From contig JACMRI010000001.1 in NCBI GenBank assembly GCA_014376525.1, positions 3,871 to 67,870 of the forward strand: a DNA stretch of 64,000 nucleotides. The letters run 5' to 3'. Positions 1 through 19,414 of the stretch are shown piece by piece. Every line of letters starts with the position of its first letter. Position 1 is the stretch's first letter. A program made the translations under genes and the position numbers. Below the pieces are notes generated by a model that saw nothing but the letters and a program-made list of their open reading frames with translations, was not told the DNA's origin and made no database searches. Source of the DNA: Bacteroidia bacterium. GTDB taxonomy: Bacteria; Bacteroidota; Bacteroidia; UBA4408.

Positions 1-352
1 ATAAATCGCCTGCATCGTGCATGTCTTCGTCTTCTTCGTGGTAGTACCAGTTTACCGTAAGTTTTATTTGATGGTACAGGCACATATTAGAAAATGCTGT
101 AATTATTTTTAACAAATACTTAGCGCTTGTGGTACTAAAATATTTTAGATTTACCTGCAGTGTTATTGAGTCGTTAGGAGGTTTTACATTGCCCAATTCA
201 TCATTTATCCATGTTATTACAGGGTCGTATATTTTGTGGCTATTTTCGGGTACACTTATACCTTTAATACTGTAAATGTTTGCATTAATATCAAAATGTA
301 TACACGGAGTGTCTTCGGTTTCTTTTAAATACAATTTAGTTGCTGCTTCCAT
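1..352 (-). CDS. DUF1987 / SiaC-like regulatory phosphoprotein (C-terminus runs off left window edge)
   Basis: Hand translation of the minus strand from ATG at 352..350 gives MEAATKLYLKETEDTPCIHFDINANIYSIKGISVPENSHKIYDPVITWINDEL... with no stop before position 1. The TP.IHFD...G.S.PEN....Y.PVI.W pattern resembles the DUF1987 family (P. aeruginosa SiaC has PENSYELFGQVIDW). It is absent from the ORF track, probably because it is truncated at the edge. Confidence 0.55.
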   Translation of the reverse strand, partial: MEAATKLYLKETEDTPCIHFDINANIYSIKGISVPENSHKIYDPVITWINDELGNVKPPNDSITLQVNLKYFSTTSAKYLLKIITAFSNMCLYHQIKLTVNWYYHEEDEDMHDAGDL

Positions 353-380
353 TGTTTATCGTTATTAAATTTTGCTGTTT

Positions 381-3300
381 TTATGCTTCGCTGTTTGTTT
401 TTTTGCCTAAGCGTGCTACCAAATTTTCGGCTCCATCAAGTAACTTTTTTAACACATCAAAATAAAGCATTATTATTAATAATATACTTGTGAACCATAT
501 AATTAATATGTTTGCCCAAAACGTATTTACGGCTACTCCAAATATTATTTTTTGTGGTGCGTAAAAATGCGTGCGTATAAACGATGTGCGCAATGGCGAC
601 TTAAATACTGGGTCGGCTTTTTGTATAAGCATACCCCTTACTTCGGTTATTTTATTGAGGTCATTGCCGTTTTTAACCATATTGCTCACACTTTCGTTGG
701 CGTATTCGTCTTGCATTTTTTGAAATGCTTCACGCCCTCCTGCTGCTTTTTCAAGTTTATATACTACACCATCTTTTTTGTCGCTGGCTTTGTTGTACTG
801 GCGCATATAGTGTTTGCCTAATTGTGCCGATAGTATCCGTAGGTCTTGTATAAGTGCTTTGTTAAAATTTGCGGGTTTTATGTTAGCTAACTTTTTGTAA
901 GTTACCTCGGTGTTGTTTTCTAACTCGTAGGTAAGTTCATTTTTAAGTAAAAGTACATCTTGCTCAAACTCGGCTACTGGCGTATGTTTCATATTCACAT
1001 AGTTTTCGCACTTATCTATTTTTTTGTCTATTTCTTTTATCCAATAATCTTTTTTAAACTGAGCTTCGCTCATTTGTTTGTCAAATTTGTAAAACTGAGC
1101 TTCAAATTTATTATTGGCAAATTGATTAACTGCCAATGCCTCAAACGCCCAGCGTGAGGTCATTATATCACCCGCAAACGGCACATTGTTTTGGGAAGTA
1201 ATAGCAGGATTTAGTTTTTCAAACTTAACAATAACACCACTTAATAATATTTGAGGTATTATTAAAAAAGGAATAAGTATATAAATAGTAACCGCCGAAT
1301 TAAATGTTGCCGATATGTTCAATCCCAACAAATTAGCCCAACACGAGGTAGTAAATAGTATTAAAAAATAATCCCAAAACATACCTTGCACGCCCAATAT
1401 ACCATTACCAATAAGTATAAACGACGTTGTTTGTATTGCCGATAGCGCAAACATTATCATTATTTTGGATAATAAATAACTTCCCTTACTTAGATTTAGG
1501 AACGACTCTCGTTTTAGTATTTTTCTATCTCTAATTATTTCTTCGGCACTTACCGTTAAGCCTATAAATAATGCTACTACCACTGCCATAAATAAGTATG
1601 CTGGCATATTTTCATTTTCACGAAATATGTAGCCTACTTTGTTGTTTACATCAATATCATAATAGCGTATTAAATACCCTAATATGGTTGCTAACAAAGG
1701 GGCTTCGAGCAAGTTGATGGCTATGTACTGCGTGTTGGTTAGTTTTGACTTAACATCACGTGTAATAAATATTATTAACTGATTAAAAAAATTAGGTATT
1801 TTAAATGTGCTTTTGGGCGCATCGGTTTCTATTTTTATGTTTTTGTTGGTAAAGTCGGGGCGTGTTAAGTAATGTTCGTTCCATTCGCTTGGCTTATACT
1901 TGCGCTTGCGTGTAGGATTGCCATATTCGTCCACTACCTTGGTTTCTATAATATTAAATATCTGTTCAGTATTAACGTTACCACACGTATTACATTCACT
2001 TTCATCGGCATTTACTTGGTTGGCCAATCGTTTAAAATAACTAACTGCATCAACAGGATTGGCGTAGTAAATAGGAAAACCGCCTACGTCCAAAATCATC
2101 AATTTATCAAACATTTTAAATATGTCGGACGAAGGCTGATGTATAACCACAAATATTAATTTTCCTTTGAGAGCAAGTTCCTTAAGTAAGTCCATAATGT
2201 TTTCAGAATCGCGCGATGATAAACCTGATGTTGGTTCATCAACAAACATTACTGCGGGCTCACGTATCAATTCTAGTGCTATGTTTAAGCGCTTGCGCTG
2301 ACCGCCCGATATTGTTTTTTCTAGCGGACTACCTACTTTTAAATTACGAGTTTCGTACAATCCCAAATCGTTTAATGTGCCGTGTACTATCTCTGTTATT
2401 TGTTCGTCGCTGTATCCATCAAAACATAATTTGGCATTAAAAAATAAGTTTTCAAACACTGTTAATTCTTCAATTAACAAATCGTCTTGAGACACAAATC
2501 CTATAACCCCTTCTAACTTTTCTTTTTGTGTATGTAGGTTTATGTTGTTGATTAATACTGCTCCGCTTGATGGGGTTTCGTTACCATTAAGCACGTTAAG
2601 CAATGTGGACTTACCTGCCCCCGAACCGCCCATTATTCCTATTAATTTGCCACTTTCTTCGGCAAAGTTTAATGGGTGTAAACCTGTTTTTCCGTTTTTA
2701 AATTTGTACTGTAATTCGTCGGCCACAAATGATATTCCTGCTGATGAATTATCTTTTAAATAACGAGAAATAATATCGCTGTAATAAATTGGTTGTGTTT
2801 TGCTACTGCGTAATGATGAGCCTTGCGTAAGAACATACACACGTGTTGGCAATATGTTGGTACCGTTCAAAAACAACTCGGCACTACCATACAAGCGCAA
2901 CACATACATACCTATGCTAGAAAAGTTTAATATACGTACACTACCCTGCAAGCCCTCTATATATAAGTGTTTGCTTAATTGTAGTTCGTTGTTTTTAATA
3001 CTGTTAATAATTAATTGTTGGTCAATATCATCAACATTAATTGTGGCAGGATTGCTAAATTTGTTTAATCTTTTATACTCTTCTTCGTCAATGTTAAAAG
3101 TAAGTGCAACAGTTTCAACAAACTCTAATTCTTGCTCGGTGACTGATTCATTTATAAATATAAATTCGAGCAAACGTATTACCACAATAAACTTTTGGCG
3201 TTGCTCCAACTCGGCATTTATGTCTGTACATATTTTTAGTACCTTAACAGAGCTCGATGATGTACGTTTGCGTTTTTTTTCGCCATCGCCACCACCTTGA

Positions 3301-3476
3301 AATTTCTCCAATTGCTCGTCGAACAATCGCAAATACTCTAATACTAACTCCGAGTTAAGTTGTTGGCGTAGGAATAATTCTACCAGTTTACGTCCTTCTA
3401 CAAACGTTCCACCGTCGTCGCTACGTGCTATGATAGCGAACAATTGCATTAGGGCTTTTAATATTTTTTCACTCAT
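381..3476 (-). CDS. Fused ABC transporter ATP-binding/permease protein (ABCG/White-type, ABC-2 membrane domain) with ~270-aa N-terminal extension (TerB-like helical repeats, possible FHA-like segment)
   Basis: Walker A GIMGGSGAGKSTLLNVLNG, ABC signature SGGQRKRLNIALEL and Walker B VMFVDEPTSGLSSRD are present, followed by ~6 TM helices (ABC2_membrane-like). Two TerB-like helical segments sit at the N-terminus (LFAIIARSDDGGTFVEGRKLVELFL; FIVVIRLLEFIFINESVTEQELEFVET). The segment before the ATPase contains an LNGTNI...LTQGSSL motif reminiscent of FHA domains. Confidence 0.8.
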   Translation of the reverse strand: MSEKILKALMQLFAIIARSDDGGTFVEGRKLVELFLRQQLNSELVLEYLRLFDEQLEKFQGGGDGEKKRKRTSSSSVKVLKICTDINAELEQRQKFIVVIRLLEFIFINESVTEQELEFVETVALTFNIDEEEYKRLNKFSNPATINVDDIDQQLIINSIKNNELQLSKHLYIEGLQGSVRILNFSSIGMYVLRLYGSAELFLNGTNILPTRVYVLTQGSSLRSSKTQPIYYSDIISRYLKDNSSAGISFVADELQYKFKNGKTGLHPLNFAEESGKLIGIMGGSGAGKSTLLNVLNGNETPSSGAVLINNINLHTQKEKLEGVIGFVSQDDLLIEELTVFENLFFNAKLCFDGYSDEQITEIVHGTLNDLGLYETRNLKVGSPLEKTISGGQRKRLNIALELIREPAVMFVDEPTSGLSSRDSENIMDLLKELALKGKLIFVVIHQPSSDIFKMFDKLMILDVGGFPIYYANPVDAVSYFKRLANQVNADESECNTCGNVNTEQIFNIIETKVVDEYGNPTRKRKYKPSEWNEHYLTRPDFTNKNIKIETDAPKSTFKIPNFFNQLIIFITRDVKSKLTNTQYIAINLLEAPLLATILGYLIRYYDIDVNNKVGYIFRENENMPAYLFMAVVVALFIGLTVSAEEIIRDRKILKRESFLNLSKGSYLLSKIMIMFALSAIQTTSFILIGNGILGVQGMFWDYFLILFTTSCWANLLGLNISATFNSAVTIYILIPFLIIPQILLSGVIVKFEKLNPAITSQNNVPFAGDIMTSRWAFEALAVNQFANNKFEAQFYKFDKQMSEAQFKKDYWIKEIDKKIDKCENYVNMKHTPVAEFEQDVLLLKNELTYELENNTEVTYKKLANIKPANFNKALIQDLRILSAQLGKHYMRQYNKASDKKDGVVYKLEKAAGGREAFQKMQDEYANESVSNMVKNGNDLNKITEVRGMLIQKADPVFKSPLRTSFIRTHFYAPQKIIFGVAVNTFWANILIIWFTSILLIIMLYFDVLKKLLDGAENLVARLGKKTNSEA

Positions 3477-3514: not shown

Positions 3515-4243
3515 TTAAGAATTATGCAATTTGAAATTTTGTCCTAAATATACTTTGCGCACTTGTTCATCGGCAGCTAGCTCTTCAGGAGTACCGTGTT
3601 TAAGTATTTTACCTTCAAATAATAAGTAGGCTCTATCTACTAACGCAAGGGTTTCGTGTACGTTGTGGTCAGTAATTAATATGCCTATGTTGCGCTCTTT
3701 TAGTTTACTTACTATAGTTTGAATGTCCTCTACCGCAATAGGATCAACTCCTGCAAAGGGTTCGTCCAATAGTATAAATTTAGGATCAACCGCCAAGGCA
3801 CGTGCTATTTCGGTACGGCGACGTTCGCCACCGCTCAAAAAATCGCCTCTATTGGTGCGTATGTGCTGTAGGCTAAATTCGTTTAATAATTGTTCTAGTT
3901 TTTCGTTGCGCTGTTTTTTGTTAAGGTCTGTAAATTCTAAGGCTGCCATAATATTATCTTCAACACTCAACTTACGAAATACGCTTGCTTCCTGCGCCAA
4001 ATAACCCACACCCAGCTTTGCACGCTTATACATAGCCATGTGTGTAATGTCTTTATCGTCCAAAAAAACTTTGCCCTCGTTGGGTGTAACCAAGCCTACC
4101 GTCATATAAAAAGTTGTGGTTTTGCCAGCGCCATTTGGCCCAAGTAAACCCACAACTTCTCCCTGCTTTACATTAACTGATACGTTATTTACCACGTATC
4201 GGTTTTTATATTTTTTAACTAAGTTTTCAGCGCGTAACTCCAT
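3515..4243 (-). CDS. lptB: Lipopolysaccharide export ABC transporter ATP-binding protein LptB
   Basis: 242 aa. [16 protein letters not shown] Walker [16 protein letters not shown] signature and [12 protein letters not shown] Walker B. The overall LptB-like N-terminus is [18 protein letters not shown]. Confidence 0.85.
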
Positions 4244-4810
4244 GTTGCGAAGTTAAGATAAAAAGTTAATTTTTAAACTACTTATTTACTTTCTTTAACT
4301 GTCATATCTATAGTCTTATCACTTGCCAAAATAGTAATTTTATGGCTATTTTGGCTCTAAGTAGGGTCTATGGTTATGTTGTATTTATTTGAAAATATAA
4401 ATATTTATTGTATGGCACCTAATCATTTTTTTATACTGTAAGAATATTGCAAAACATATTACATTAATTTTACTGCTGTTTTTAGGTTTTACAATAGAAC
4501 TCTTTACTCATTTACGAGTATCAATTATTTGGTTAAGCTGTTTCATTTTACAAATACACTCTTTTTTTAGTAAAAATTGTTTTTAAAAAATCATTTTAGC
4601 TTTTTTCTTCAGTAATAATATGAACTTTAACAATATTGTAACAGTCCAAATGTTTTATAACTGATTAACTAATCTTTATTTATGCTTTGGGGGCTGAAAG
4701 AGTCAAGAGCTTATGTAATACAATACGAATATGGTTTTCGGTTCTACTACCGCATTAGGAAGTATTTTTGAATATTTAATAAAAATTAATATTAAAATGT
4801 AAGACGCTAA

Positions 4811-7198: not shown

Positions 7199-8197
7199 TT
7201 AGTGTACGTTGTTTTTGTATATAAATTCTACTTTTTCGGTGCTTAATTTTACATTTCGCACATAGCTAGGTTGTTTGTTAAGCAATAGTTTTAGCTTATT
7301 GTTATAGTTTGATTTGATATTATTTTCACTAATTGATACTTGTGCATAATCGGCTATTAATGAAAAATCGGTAGCTGTTACTTGTTTGAATTTTGACAGT
7401 GGAACTAAGCACGTAATTGGTACTTTATCGGGAAATGTTTTTATTGTTTTTTTATCGGGTATGTTAGTTACTTGCACAGGTAGTGTAAATTTGGCTTCGG
7501 TAAATTCTTCTATTATTATACTTACATATACTTTTTGCACGTTGGCGGATATGTTTTTAATTCCTTCAGGTAGCTTTATAGCTAGGGTTTGCGCTACATT
7601 GGCTTGTAAGTTTTTTTGTGTAAAATTTTCGGTGCTTACTTCTTTAATAGTGCTTAATGCTATACTATCGCCGAATAGCTCAAGCGTTTTGGGCTGAATA
7701 GTAATAGGCTCAGTTATAAAAAACTTAGGAGCATAACTGAGCAATGCACTAAATTTTATGGGTACTCGTTTGCTGTGTTTTTTGCGCAGTGTAAAGTGTA
7801 TTGCATTGGGTTGTATACGTATAATACTTAAACCGTAAGGTATTTGGGCGTTAATACTACTTATGTATGGTTCGCTATTTAGGTTTAATTCTATTTCATT
7901 AGTGGTTTTTAATAGTTTGGTTAAATACATTGTTATTGGTGTATGTTCGTTTATGAAATTAGACCTTAACAAATTAAAACCCGAACCTTTCACTTCTATT
8001 TGTATTATGTCGGTTTCATTAGTATTTAGTAAATAATTATTTTGTTCGTTAATAAATGTAACCGGGAAACTCAATTGAGTAATGTAGGTTTTACCCAATA
8101 TTACAAGCAACCATGCCATTATAGCAAGTAATGTACATAGAGCAAATGCACCAAACCGTTTGCGATTTTTTAGGAAATTAATTATGTTTTGTATCAT
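7199..8197 (-). CDS. YbbR-like domain-containing protein (CdaR-like)
   Basis: 332 aa. A single N-terminal TM helix (FGAFALCTLLAIMAWLLVILG) is followed by repeated beta-rich YbbR-type modules. The overall size and architecture match YbbR/CdaR proteins. Confidence 0.55.
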   Translation of the reverse strand: MIQNIINFLKNRKRFGAFALCTLLAIMAWLLVILGKTYITQLSFPVTFINEQNNYLLNTNETDIIQIEVKGSGFNLLRSNFINEHTPITMYLTKLLKTTNEIELNLNSEPYISSINAQIPYGLSIIRIQPNAIHFTLRKKHSKRVPIKFSALLSYAPKFFITEPITIQPKTLELFGDSIALSTIKEVSTENFTQKNLQANVAQTLAIKLPEGIKNISANVQKVYVSIIIEEFTEAKFTLPVQVTNIPDKKTIKTFPDKVPITCLVPLSKFKQVTATDFSLIADYAQVSISENNIKSNYNNKLKLLLNKQPSYVRNVKLSTEKVEFIYKNNVH

Positions 8198-8305
8198 TAT
8201 TTACTTAAGGAGTATTCTTCAAAAATACACATTATTGCTTGCATAATTTAAAACAAAAAAACAGTTAAAACATTATGTTTTAACTGTTTTTTTGTTGCTT
8301 TTAAG

Positions 8306-8385
8306 TGCGGATGAAGGGACTCGAACCCCCACGCTTGCGCACCAGATCCTAAGTCTGGCTCGGCTACCAATTACGACACATCCGC
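8306..8385 (-). tRNA. tRNA-Leu (anticodon UAG)
   Basis: The minus-strand sequence GCGGATG-TG-TCG-TAATTGGTAGC-CGA-G-CCAGA-CTTAGGA-TCTGG-TGCGCAAGCGT-GGGGG-TTCGAGT-CCCTT-CATCCGC-A folds as a cloverleaf. It has a 7-bp acceptor stem, a GG-containing D-loop and a 5-bp anticodon stem with loop CU-UAG-GA. U33 precedes the anticodon and a purine follows it. There is an 11-nt variable arm and a T-loop TTCGAGT. No CCA is encoded. Confidence 0.75.
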
Positions 8386-8560: not shown

Positions 8561-10072
8561 ATGAACATTTACCAACAAAAATTAGTGTGGAAATTACTAC
8601 TACTGTTAGCAGCATTACTTATAGTGGTGGCAAGTGTGGTATATACTAATAGCGTAGTAAAAAAAATAGCGCATGACGAACGCAACAAAGTACAAATATG
8701 GGCGCAGGCTTTACAAAAAAAAGCCAATCTTATACAATACACGCAATCGTTATTTGAGAAATTAGCACAAGAAGAACAAAAAAAAGTAGGTTTGTGGGCC
8801 AAAGCCACTGAGCACCTAGCAAGCTCAAGTATTGATGCTGGTAATTTGGGCTTTGTGTTTGATGTAATACGTAATAATCAAACTGTACCTGTATTATTAA
8901 CTGATGAAAAACTGAACATAATATCCAGCATAAACTTTGATTCGTCGGTTGCCAACAACCCTATTTTACTGCAAAGAGAACTAAATACAATACGACAAAA
9001 TATGTCGCCTATTGTTATAAAAGTTACGCCTACACGTCGTAATTATATTTATTATAAAGACTCTCGCTTGTTTGCCGAACTTAAATATACTATGAATGAT
9101 TTAATACAATCATTCATAAGTGAAATAGTGAGCAACTCTGCATCAGTGCCTGTGGTGCTTATAGATTCGGTATCGCAAGCTGTAGTTACATCGGGCAATG
9201 TAGATACTACCGTGCTAAATAATACCACTAAACGCATAGCCTTATTAGCTAGCATGCGCGAGCAGCATACACCACTTACGGTAAGTATAAATGCGGCAAC
9301 GCACTATGTATATTACGAAGAATCTCAATTGCTAAAAGAGCTGCGTTACTTTCCGTACATACAATTTTTTATAATAGGGTTATTTTTATTTGCAGCCTAT
9401 TATTTATTTAGTGTATCGCGTAAGGCAGAGCAAAATCAAGTGTGGGTGGGCATGAGCAAGGAAACGGCGCATCAGTTAGGCACGCCTATATCGTCGCTTA
9501 TGGCGTGGGTAGAGTTATTAAAACTACAAGATACTGATGCGCAAACTGTATACGAAATAGAAAAAGATGTACTACGCTTACAAGCAGTAGCCGATAGATT
9601 TAGCAAAGTAGGTTCAAGCCCCGATTTAAAGCTAGCCCCAGTAGCCAAGGCACTTACACACAGTTTGGAGTATATGAAAAAACGTGTTTCTACCAAAGTT
9701 GATTTTACGTATAACATTGCAGTAGATACCGATACACAAGTAATGCTTAATATTCCGTTATTGGATTGGGTACTAGAAAACGTAATAAACAATGCCGTAG
9801 ATGCTATGGATGCCGTGGGTACACTATGTATTACGGCTACTGAGCAACTAACCACTATATGTATTGATATTGAAGATACAGGCAAAGGCATACCTGCTAA
9901 TAAACTAAGTACTGTATTTGCTCCAGGTTTCACTACCAAAAAACGAGGTTGGGGATTGGGCTTATCACTTGCCAAACGGATAGTAGAGGAGTACCACAAG
10001 GGCAAAATATTTATAAAAGATTCCGTAATAGATAAAGGTACTACAGTGCGTATTGTACTTAATAAAAATTAA
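8561..10072 (+). CDS. Sensor histidine kinase (periplasmic sensor domain, HisKA + HATPase_c)
   Basis: An N-terminal TM helix and a ~240-aa periplasmic region are followed by a second TM. H-box MSKETAHQLGTPISSL is present. N/G boxes are NNAVDAMDAV and EDTGKGIP ... GWGLGLSLAKRIVEEY. No response regulator is adjacent. Confidence 0.8.
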   Translation: MNIYQQKLVWKLLLLLAALLIVVASVVYTNSVVKKIAHDERNKVQIWAQALQKKANLIQYTQSLFEKLAQEEQKKVGLWAKATEHLASSSIDAGNLGFVFDVIRNNQTVPVLLTDEKLNIISSINFDSSVANNPILLQRELNTIRQNMSPIVIKVTPTRRNYIYYKDSRLFAELKYTMNDLIQSFISEIVSNSASVPVVLIDSVSQAVVTSGNVDTTVLNNTTKRIALLASMREQHTPLTVSINAATHYVYYEESQLLKELRYFPYIQFFIIGLFLFAAYYLFSVSRKAEQNQVWVGMSKETAHQLGTPISSLMAWVELLKLQDTDAQTVYEIEKDVLRLQAVADRFSKVGSSPDLKLAPVAKALTHSLEYMKKRVSTKVDFTYNIAVDTDTQVMLNIPLLDWVLENVINNAVDAMDAVGTLCITATEQLTTICIDIEDTGKGIPANKLSTVFAPGFTTKKRGWGLGLSLAKRIVEEYHKGKIFIKDSVIDKGTTVRIVLNKN

Positions 10073-17977: not shown

Positions 17978-19414
17978 ATGATAACCACCATTACCAATTT
18001 TTGCAACTCCTATTTTAAAAACACAACAAGTATAGTACACGCATTAGCAGCGCAAGGTAGCGACCGTCAATACTACCGTGTAAGCAACAACAACGTTAAT
18101 TACATAGCGGTGTATAGCCCTGATGTAAAAGAGAATGAAGCGTTTATAAAATTCTCATTACATTTTATTAAAGCCAAAGTACCAGTGCCTACTGTATTGC
18201 ATTTTAACGAGGAGCGTACTATGTATTTGCAAAATGATTTTGGCAATACTTGCTTGTACGATGTGCTTAACAAACAAGGTTTCACTGATGAGATATATGA
18301 TCTTTATAAACAATCGTTAAAAGCACTAGCTAATATGCAAATACAAGGTGTGCAAGACTTTGATACTGCTTATTGCGTTGCGGCCAAAGAGTTTAATCGT
18401 ACAGGGTTCTATGCCGATTTATTATACTTTAATTATTACTTTGTTCGTCCTACTAAAACGCCTTATCATAAAACCGAATTACTTACCGATTTTGATACTT
18501 TGAGCGATTATTTAATGGGTGCTAATCGTTCATTTTTTATGCACCGCGATTTTCAAAGTCGTAATATAATGGTGGCAAATAATGCACCACACGTAATAGA
18601 TTATCAAGGGGGAATGTTAGGCGCATTGCAGTACGATGTGGCTTCGCTACTGTGGCAAGCTAAAGCGCAACTGCCATACGAATGGCGCAATAATTTATTT
18701 GATTATTACTACGAGCAAGCACAACTGCAAAGCACACAAGTGCAAGACAAACTTACATTTACCGACCATTACAACGCATTTGTATTATTGCGCTTGTTGC
18801 AAGTATTAGGCGCGTACGGATTTAGAGGTTTGTTTGAAGGTCGCCCACACTTTATAGATAGCATAGCACCTGCACTGGAAAACCTAAAATGGTTTGTAGC
18901 TAACAAACGTTTGCCTTTAAAATTAAATGCCTTATACGAAGTATTAAACCACATTACTCAACCCGAATTTATAGCACAATTTAAAATAGAAAAAGCCTTG
19001 GCTACAAGCAAACTAAAAGTAACCATAACCAGCTTTAGTTACAAGCGTGCTATACCTGCCGATGTGAGTGGAAACGGAGGTGGCTATGTGTTTGACTGCC
19101 GTGGTGTACATAACCCTGGTAGGTTTGAAGAGTATAAAAAACTCACTGGAAGAGATAAACCTGTAATTGACTTTTTGATGAACAAAACACTTATGCCGCA
19201 GTTTATAAAACACATACAAAACTTGGTGGACATAACGGTGCAAGATTATTTAAAACGAGATTTTGAAAACCTAATGCTTAATTTTGGTTGCACAGGCGGG
19301 CAGCACCGTAGCGTGTTTAGTGCTGATGCTCTGGCAACTTATTTGCGTGAGCGGTATAACTTAACTGTAACCGTAACACATACCGAGCAAGAACTAAAAG
19401 GTTGGATTAACTAA
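17978..19414 (+). CDS. Fusion protein: APH-family (AmgK-like anomeric amino-sugar) kinase N-terminal domain + RapZ C-terminal-like domain
   Basis: N-terminal ~330 aa carry DRQYYRV (nucleotide-binding lysine region) and the Brenner/catalytic motif MHRDFQSRNIMV plus VIDYQGG (DFG-equivalent) of the aminoglycoside/choline-kinase-like phosphotransferase fold. C-terminal ~140 aa carry SFSYKRAIPADVSGNGGGYVFDCRGVHNPGRF ... LTGRDKPVIDFL ... GCTGGQHRSVFSADALATYL, closely matching the conserved motifs of the RapZ (YvcJ/YhbJ) C-terminal domain. Confidence 0.65.
   Translation: MITTITNFCNSYFKNTTSIVHALAAQGSDRQYYRVSNNNVNYIAVYSPDVKENEAFIKFSLHFIKAKVPVPTVLHFNEERTMYLQNDFGNTCLYDVLNKQGFTDEIYDLYKQSLKALANMQIQGVQDFDTAYCVAAKEFNRTGFYADLLYFNYYFVRPTKTPYHKTELLTDFDTLSDYLMGANRSFFMHRDFQSRNIMVANNAPHVIDYQGGMLGALQYDVASLLWQAKAQLPYEWRNNLFDYYYEQAQLQSTQVQDKLTFTDHYNAFVLLRLLQVLGAYGFRGLFEGRPHFIDSIAPALENLKWFVANKRLPLKLNALYEVLNHITQPEFIAQFKIEKALATSKLKVTITSFSYKRAIPADVSGNGGGYVFDCRGVHNPGRFEEYKKLTGRDKPVIDFLMNKTLMPQFIKHIQNLVDITVQDYLKRDFENLMLNFGCTGGQHRSVFSADALATYLRERYNLTVTVTHTEQELKGWIN

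Follow-up and report, generated by a model that had tools for sequence, protein, structure and literature searches.

A SiaC-family switch gene is associated with an ABCG-type transporter carrying a TerB-like and FHA-fold head in Bacteroidota

The window analysed here, a 64,000-nt stretch of a Bacteroidia genome (lineage UBA4408; contig JACMRI010000001.1 of assembly GCA_014376525.1), opens with a SiaC-family (DUF1987) gene that lies directly downstream of a gene for an ABCG-type ATP-binding cassette (ABC) transporter. An earlier note, made from the sequence without database searches, had singled out this pair as a possible signalling-gated exporter. Profile searches, structure prediction and comparison of gene neighbourhoods across Bacteroidota revealed that the two genes are associated in many other lineages. 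We tentatively propose that the SiaC-like protein acts by partner switching, with the transporter as its output. The features of the locus are collected in Table 1.

Table 1. Features at the left end of the window (aa, amino acids; NBD, nucleotide-binding domain; ORF, open reading frame; AF2, AlphaFold2; pLDDT, predicted local distance difference test score; LPS, lipopolysaccharide).
Feature	Position	Strand	Basis
siaC-like gene (DUF1987/SiaC family), first 117 of 133 codons	1..352	-	translation; Pfam; runs past left window edge
Spacer of 28 nt, ABC stop codon to siaC start codon	353..380	-	sequence
ABCG-type half-transporter gene, 1031 aa	381..3476	-	NBD precedes ABC-2 membrane domain; ORF and Pfam
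C-terminal extension, residues 796-1031	384..1091	-	full-length AF2 model, pLDDT 74.7
ABC-2 type membrane domain, residues ~563-793	1098..1790	-	Pfam ABC2_membrane; helices in full-length AF2 model
Nucleotide-binding domain, residues 266-484	2025..2681	-	Walker A GGSGAGKST, signature SGGQRKR; Pfam ABC_tran
Compact FHA-fold beta-sandwich and next helix, residues 154-240	2757..3017	-	predicted structure
TerB-like helical bundle, residues 3-141	3054..3470	-	seven helices in AF2 model; TerB profile
Basic loop GGDGEKKRKRTSSSSVKV within TerB-like domain, residues 62-77	3246..3293	-	pLDDT <50 at residues 62-71
lptB (LPS export ATPase), 38 nt upstream of ABC gene	3515..4243	-	NCBIfam TIGR04406, 381 bits vs cut-off 240

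The ORF and its Pfam layout agree with the earlier description of a 1031-aa ABC transporter with an N-terminal extension, which measures about 262-265 aa ahead of ABC_tran. In the translation, ABC_tran matches residues 266-417 (107.6 bits) and ABC2_membrane residues 566-786 (76.4 bits), and the Walker B motif VMFVDEPTSGL is intact, as are Walker A and the signature; the protein thus has the order of domains and the motifs of an ABCG-type (type V, ABC-2) exporter. The best NCBIfam model is the White/ABCG subfamily TIGR00955 (E 5.9e-75, 253 bits against a cut-off of 736 bits). The closest solved relatives by sequence are the eukaryotic and fungal ABCG/PDR transporters: Cdr1/Pdr5, ABCG1, ABCG2 and ABCG5/8 are the top matches among solved structures, and the ABCG2 alignment, spanning query residues 278-786, covers the NBD and the transmembrane domain. 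In contrast to these proteins, the window transporter adds the N-terminal head of 262 aa and a C-terminal extension of ~235 aa. In the AF2 model the latter comprises helices at residues 796-828, 834-854 and 873-911 and a terminal helix, as well as two beta hairpins and an extra hydrophobic helix (985-1005). No Pfam domain matched residues 796-1031; the extension is specific to the transporter family and conserved throughout it, with positions N927, N936, Q952, P956, P961 and F971 conserved.

Structure prediction of the N-terminal region, a check that the earlier note had proposed, yielded a TerB-like bundle followed by an FHA-fold sandwich. The AF2 model of the head, built from an alignment of 29 homologous N-termini (mean pLDDT 82.6), consists of seven helices (residues 3-141), a small beta-sandwich (154-223) and a further helix (232-240). 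The Pfam TerB profile (PF05099) scores 21.6 bits with the window N-terminus and 18.7 bits with the full protein, against a cut-off of 24.4, and it matches all 29 homologous N-termini (best E 6.1e-9); many homologues also carry a precomputed PF05099 match. Structure searches matched the fold to 2h5n (PG_1108) and 2ou3 (COG3793), TerB-like proteins with which the domain shares the helical bundle and, family-wide, the TerB profile. The earlier note had proposed two TerB-like segments: their TerB-like nature stands, but given the 29 profile matches and the seven-helix bundle they form one domain, over residues 8-137. Unlike PG_1108 and COG3793, the window domain is joined within one protein to an FHA fold and an ABC transporter, and it bears a conserved basic KRKRTS loop. 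Within this loop, GGDGEKKRKRTSSSSVKV, residues K70, T72, S73, S76 and V77 are invariant in the homologue alignment. Judged by its sequence, the loop resembles a basophilic phosphorylation site, and as such it would echo the phospho-linker of the Mycobacterium tuberculosis exporter Rv1747, discussed below.

Two structure searches placed the predicted beta-sandwich in the FHA fold, so the FHA-like character that the earlier note had seen in this stretch holds at the level of fold, but Pfam FHA (PF00498) gave no match to the window protein at E <=1. Among homologues, one of 29 matched at E 0.055 and five of 44 did so with a best E of 5.5e-4, and nothing relevant emerged when the N-terminal and the beta-domain alignments were used as profiles against PDB sequences. 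We compared the family profile by hhalign with Rad53 FHA1, GarA, FhaA and Chk2, all checked against the PDB. Only the C-terminal half of the domain aligned with Rad53 FHA1 or with the four-member FHA alignment (E 1e-3 to 2e-3), pairing LFLNGTNILPTRVYVLTQGSSLRSS of the transporter family with TWLNGQKVEKNSNQLLSQGDEITVG on the FHA side. The stretch that the earlier note had written as NGT...L.QGS is the segment paired with NGQ...L.QGD of Rad53 FHA1; by this pairing, the invariant N204-G205 takes the place of the structural "vNG" turn rather than that of the peptide-binding Asn. The GR, SxxH and SxNGT motifs, invariant in the four canonical FHA domains, have no aligned counterpart in the transporter family by sequence and secondary-structure register. 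Across 196 family members, the candidate arginine R181 is conserved in 71% (M, S, Q, W or K in other orders) and S187 in 93% (replaced by T, V or A in certain lineages); Met stands at the His position of SxxH, the SxNG loop is absent, and the would-be phosphate-binding loops hold conserved acidic residues, E174 and E200. The proposal of a phosphothreonine-binding module is therefore unsupported: the GR, SxxH and SxNG motifs could not be aligned, and neither the candidate Arg nor the candidate Ser is constant in the family. As these canonical motifs were not found, the domain is probably a minimal, degenerate FHA fold similar to that of EssC, whose FHA-like domains lack phosphothreonine-recognition residues (PMC4925161). 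The EssC/YukB type VII secretion ATPase is an unrelated, FtsK/SpoIIIE-type machine with two FHA-like domains and no TerB domain.

The TerB-FHA-like module is specific to this transporter family. A search of 1.84 billion proteins recovered it in 298 clusters (50% identity) at E <=1e-30, and among the best 150 matches listed it nearly always begins at residue 1 of ~1000-aa proteins or fragments, P0161 and P0273 being the exceptions. The transporter is a Bacteroidota-specific protein with a fixed tandem of a TerB-like domain and an FHA fold at its cytoplasmic N-terminus. The family occurs in the cultured strains Marinifilum flexuosum DSM 21950 and Crocinitomix catalasitica ATCC 23190, which makes experiments feasible.

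The neighbouring gene proved to be what the earlier note had called it, a DUF1987 gene on the same strand: its ORF starts at position 352 and scores 96.4 bits with Pfam SiaC (PF09345; cut-off 24.5, E 1.2e-27), the partial ORF alone covering positions 2-103 of the 120 in the profile. The SiaC-type motif mentioned there is likewise present, as VPENSHKIYDPVITW. The complete gene, encoding 133 aa, could be read at 7914..8315 of a 9.5-kb public contig (L001) that encodes the exact window ABC protein and reaches beyond the left window edge; the full-length protein also matches PF09345. In a phmmer alignment with Pseudomonas aeruginosa SiaC (PDB 6kko), YFSTTS of the window protein pairs with YLNTSS, so that Y71..T74 corresponds to Y65..T68. 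T74, which by this alignment corresponds to the phospho-acceptor of the Thr-phosphorylated switch protein invoked in the earlier note, is invariant in 27 SiaC sequences paired with transporters. The surrounding Y71, S76 and K78 are invariant in the members of the window clade and in a SiaB-linked type described below. On the NCBIfam SiaC equivalog model (NF038265), the window protein scores 62.6-62.7 bits against a cut-off of 150 bits. It is therefore a member of the SiaC family, or a paralogue, and not an orthologue of SiaC.

Co-transcription of the ABC gene and siaC in the window lineage is very probable from the short same-strand gap, in which no terminator-like site was found on the coding strand. 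An exact TAnnTTTG was absent from the final 320 nt of the ABC gene and from the region upstream of lptB. A scan with the sigma-70 consensus did not exceed shuffled sequence (28 matches against a mean of 24.4), a comparison limited by a consensus that is ill-suited to Bacteroidota promoters.

In the clade of the window, lptB is the first gene of a conserved lptB-ABC-siaC run. The three genes lie on one strand with short gaps in the window and L001, in L085, in L087, in L088/L089 and in L083/L084, that is, in five of six distinct clade contexts, with ABC proteins 87% (L085) and 73% (L083/L084) identical to that of the window; the lptB-ABC order, found in L083, L087, L088 and L089, also occurs in L082. 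Beyond siaC the clade has three right flanks, namely an HU-TPR pair, an opposite-strand M24 peptidase gene and TatA. On L001, an HU/IHF-like gene follows siaC after 11 nt and a TPR gene comes next; these genes occupy the place to the left of the window where the earlier note had expected SiaB/SiaA-like kinase and phosphatase genes. A tblastn search covering the whole 64 kb detected neither SiaB nor a second SiaC, nor the p300/p141 genes, Pfam analysis of ten more window proteins near the locus detected no PP2C and no SiaB-like protein, and none of the five clade contigs holds a SiaB-like gene.

Outside this clade, we scanned one genome per GTDB species and obtained 80 loci with full-length ABC orthologues, 51-64% identical by the best aligned segment. 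A local hidden Markov model search detected SiaC-family genes at 18 of these loci; of the 74 with enough downstream sequence, 12 have siaC as the immediate neighbour on the opposite strand and 6 more have it within 8 kb. The immediate neighbour encodes a highly conserved SiaC of 126 aa with the motif LEYFNTSSSK (numbered as Y65-T68 of P. aeruginosa), which scores 100.8 bits on NF038265 and is thus also under the 150-bit cut-off. It is always preceded by a gene of ~181 aa that matches Pfam DUF6272 and the NCBIfam SiaB-family kinase model NF038262 (156.9 bits, cut-off 85). When metagenomes were scanned with an alignment of the 126-aa SiaC, 80 loci were recovered: SiaB lies directly upstream of siaC in all 72 with room for it, and in 47 of the 63 with room on the other side the C-terminus of the ABC family is convergent to siaC at a distance of less than 400 bp. 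These 47 resolved triples of ABC, SiaC and SiaB show 16 different complete sets of flanks, drawn from 8 gene families next to the ABC gene and 9 on the far side of SiaB. The neighbourhood, with or without SiaB, spans several orders (Bacteroidales, Flavobacteriales/Vicingaceae and one Sphingobacteriaceae metagenome-assembled genome), and other SiaC paralogues recur beside the same ABC family: in L064 a different paralogue lies upstream, as siaC-p300-ABC on one strand, and in L015 a sequence-divergent siaC is convergent to the transporter gene. The co-conservation of the DUF1987-ABC pair, which the earlier note had proposed to check, therefore holds across Bacteroidota, far beyond chance. Its proposal of co-transcription fared less uniformly: this is likely in the window clade but fails in most other Bacteroidota, where siaC is convergent and has the SiaB gene directly upstream.

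In most other Bacteroidota (52 of 71 GTDB loci; for example L076 6615..7951 (+)), two exported proteins are encoded ahead of the ABC gene on the same strand, a lipoprotein of ~300 aa with a lipobox Cys and a protein of ~141 aa with a signal peptide, sometimes accompanied by a third exported protein of ~165 aa. They matched no Pfam or NCBIfam family; in the window clade, lptB takes their place. Several Bacteroidales loci have two SiaB-SiaC pairs; the second, which is divergent, is 4-5 kb away (L059 8982..9912, L071 15935..16926 and L075 15227..16152, all on the reverse strand), with an S41 (CtpA-like) peptidase gene on one side of it and guaA on the other.

The characterised system closest to this arrangement is SiaABCD of P. 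aeruginosa, composed of the SiaB kinase, the SiaA PP2C phosphatase, SiaC and the diguanylate cyclase SiaD. There, SiaC T68, which sits at the N-terminus of helix alpha2 within Y65-x-N67-T68-S69, is phosphorylated by SiaB; SiaC touches the stalk of SiaD through N67, T68 and S69, and once phosphorylated it no longer binds (PMC8457831). The window protein shares with SiaC the PF09345 domain, the T68-equivalent threonine and the preceding tyrosine, and in other Bacteroidota a SiaB-family kinase gene adjoins siaC. In contrast to SiaABCD, the window locus has no SiaB in 64 kb and no GGDEF protein; the [RK]xGG[DE]EF motif occurs in none of the 1628 ORFs of all loci, so the known type of SiaC target is absent locally. 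No PP2C, for which no systematic search was made, was found among Pfam-annotated neighbours. Taken together, the missing GGDEF motif, SiaB and PP2C indicate that the locus is not a SiaABCD operon. The conserved neighbour of siaC is instead the ABC transporter, which makes it the candidate output.

A second parallel is Rv1747 of M. tuberculosis, an FHA-bearing ABC exporter that is regulated by PknF, a kinase encoded with it, and to which the small regulator Rv2623 binds; it sets a precedent for phosphorylation and a small regulator both acting on the FHA head of such a transporter (PMC3138270, PMC5549992). Both proteins have the ABCG-like reverse topology, an N-terminal FHA-fold head and an adjacent signalling gene (PMC3138270, PMC5549992). 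Rv1747 carries two canonical, phosphothreonine-binding FHA domains with a phospho-acceptor linker between them and has a Hanks-type Ser/Thr kinase in its operon (PMC3138270, PMC8339232), whereas the window protein has one TerB-like domain and one minimal FHA fold without recognisable phosphothreonine motifs. The adjacent gene here encodes a STAS-like switch protein or a kinase of the SiaB type rather than a Hanks-type enzyme, and no Ser/Thr kinase gene was found among the annotated genes of the window operon.

By analogy with the known logic of SiaC (PMC8457831), and in line with the suggestion, published with the SiaC-SiaD structure, that modulating adjacent proteins is a general role of DUF1987 (PMC8457831) and with the Rv1747 parallel, we propose a mechanism in which the transporter is the output. 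From the genomic context, the best-supported reading, possible though short of probable, is that the SiaC-like protein acts as a partner-switch regulator with the transporter, and not a diguanylate cyclase, as its target. The unphosphorylated protein would dock on the cytoplasmic part of the transporter, either on the TerB/FHA-like head or on the long C-terminal helices; the C-terminal extension could provide a second docking surface for a regulator. Docking would change ATPase or transport activity, and phosphorylation of the conserved threonine (T74) by a SiaB-family kinase would release SiaC. The gene for this kinase would be the one directly upstream of siaC in most Bacteroidota, and in the window lineage it may lie elsewhere in the genome or have been lost. 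The full form of this proposal is the more doubtful one: that a SiaB/SiaC-type switch directly gates an ABCG-type exporter across Bacteroidota, with unphosphorylated SiaC binding the head or the C-terminal helical stalk and phosphorylation of the threonine releasing it, and that the window lineage is a derived, operon-fused and kinase-detached version of it.

Several observations weigh against such a link, and most of them would be expected if the adjacency were inherited gene order, with SiaC acting on another target (the HU-like or TPR products, or an unlinked enzyme) and the head sensing something else. In the closest long relative, represented by JGI (Joint Genome Institute) sample 3300080850, the two genes are separated on different contigs: downstream of an ABC orthologue (85% identical) comes a SulP-carbonic anhydrase gene (L082), and a SiaC orthologue (80%) keeps the HU-like and TPR genes as neighbours and lies behind a divergent DUF6962 gene, with no ABC gene nearby (L086). 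The lptB-ABC and siaC-HU-TPR arrangements of these contigs show a recent rearrangement breakpoint exactly between ABC and siaC. Most species loci, 56 of 74, have no SiaC gene within 8 kb of the ABC gene. The convergent orientation excludes co-transcription of the two genes in most lineages, which makes their proximity weaker evidence for a shared function. The metagenome counts are inflated because many loci share a long-range synteny of GuaA, S41 peptidase, RlmL-like, SiaB and SiaC genes and are not independent, and the sample is biased because most sequences in the SiaC query alignment were copies from beside the ABC gene. No SiaB or PP2C gene is found near the window ABC-siaC pair, and the linkage between SiaC and the transporter is in all cases one of genomic context.

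We nevertheless consider simple inheritance of gene order somewhat unlikely. The ABC/SiaC(/SiaB) neighbourhood persists despite turnover of both flanks and in several orders, and distinct SiaC paralogues in distinct orientations have come to lie beside the same transporter family (the window clade, L064 and L015). Chance adjacency would amount to ~0.1% per genome, assuming few SiaC genes per genome. Within the window clade, siaC is linked to the HU-like and TPR genes in two of six contexts, compared with five of six for the ABC-siaC pair.

The lack of a SiaB-like gene in the 64-kb window and on the five clade contigs suggests another explanation, by which the SiaC protein of the window clade has become a constitutive accessory subunit that is no longer phosphorylated because the kinase was lost. 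Its divergence would fit this, as would its gene's tight same-strand spacing behind the ABC gene: the protein is only ~30% identical to the SiaB-linked 126-aa type, a further point against the proposed mechanism, and falls well below the equivalog cut-off (62.7 against 150 bits). We regard loss of phosphorylation as improbable, since T74, Y71, S76 and K78 are invariant in the clade and in the SiaB-linked type alike; moreover, the inspected loci are a small part of each genome, and the kinase may lie elsewhere. Quite improbable is the model of the earlier note, in which the FHA-like domain reads phosphothreonine and the exporter is gated by bound phospho-SiaC, as in the one characterised SiaC system phosphorylation does not create a binding partner for the target but makes SiaC let go of it (PMC8457831).

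Three further features of the window lie outside the ABC-siaC pair. Upstream of lptB is a 567-bp AT-rich intergenic region (4244..4810, ~30% GC) with no ORF of >=60 aa and no Rfam match. The sole Rfam match in the 64-kb window is a single tRNA gene at 8306..8385 on the reverse strand, flanked by a gene for a 332-aa protein (7199..8197) and a histidine kinase gene (8561..10072). At 17978..19414 on the forward strand, an APH-type phosphotransferase domain and a RapZ C-terminal domain (PF22740) are joined in one protein of 478 aa, an unusual fusion.

DUF1987/SiaC proteins are widespread, and to our knowledge their sole known output is the Pseudomonas diguanylate cyclase SiaD, which SiaC activates; c-di-GMP signalling is reportedly sparse in Bacteroidota. 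Likewise, we know of essentially one example of a bacterial ABCG-like transporter with a regulatory head, Rv1747. The components described here are each of a known kind, and their combination and implied output are not described in the literature we found: our searches returned no paper on SiaB/DUF6272 or DUF1987 in Bacteroidota and none on a TerB-FHA ABC transporter. A phylum-wide link between SiaB/SiaC and a TerB-FHA-like ABC transporter would supply a new, testable case for both fields. It would show how a STAS-like switch controls a membrane pump, and what role a degenerate FHA fold and a TerB domain play at the mouth of an ABC motor. If the proposal is true, an ABC transporter would for the first time be placed under partner-switch control, and DUF1987 would gain its first assigned output in Bacteroidota; the recurring pairing suggests a way of switching a transporter on and off that has not yet been described.

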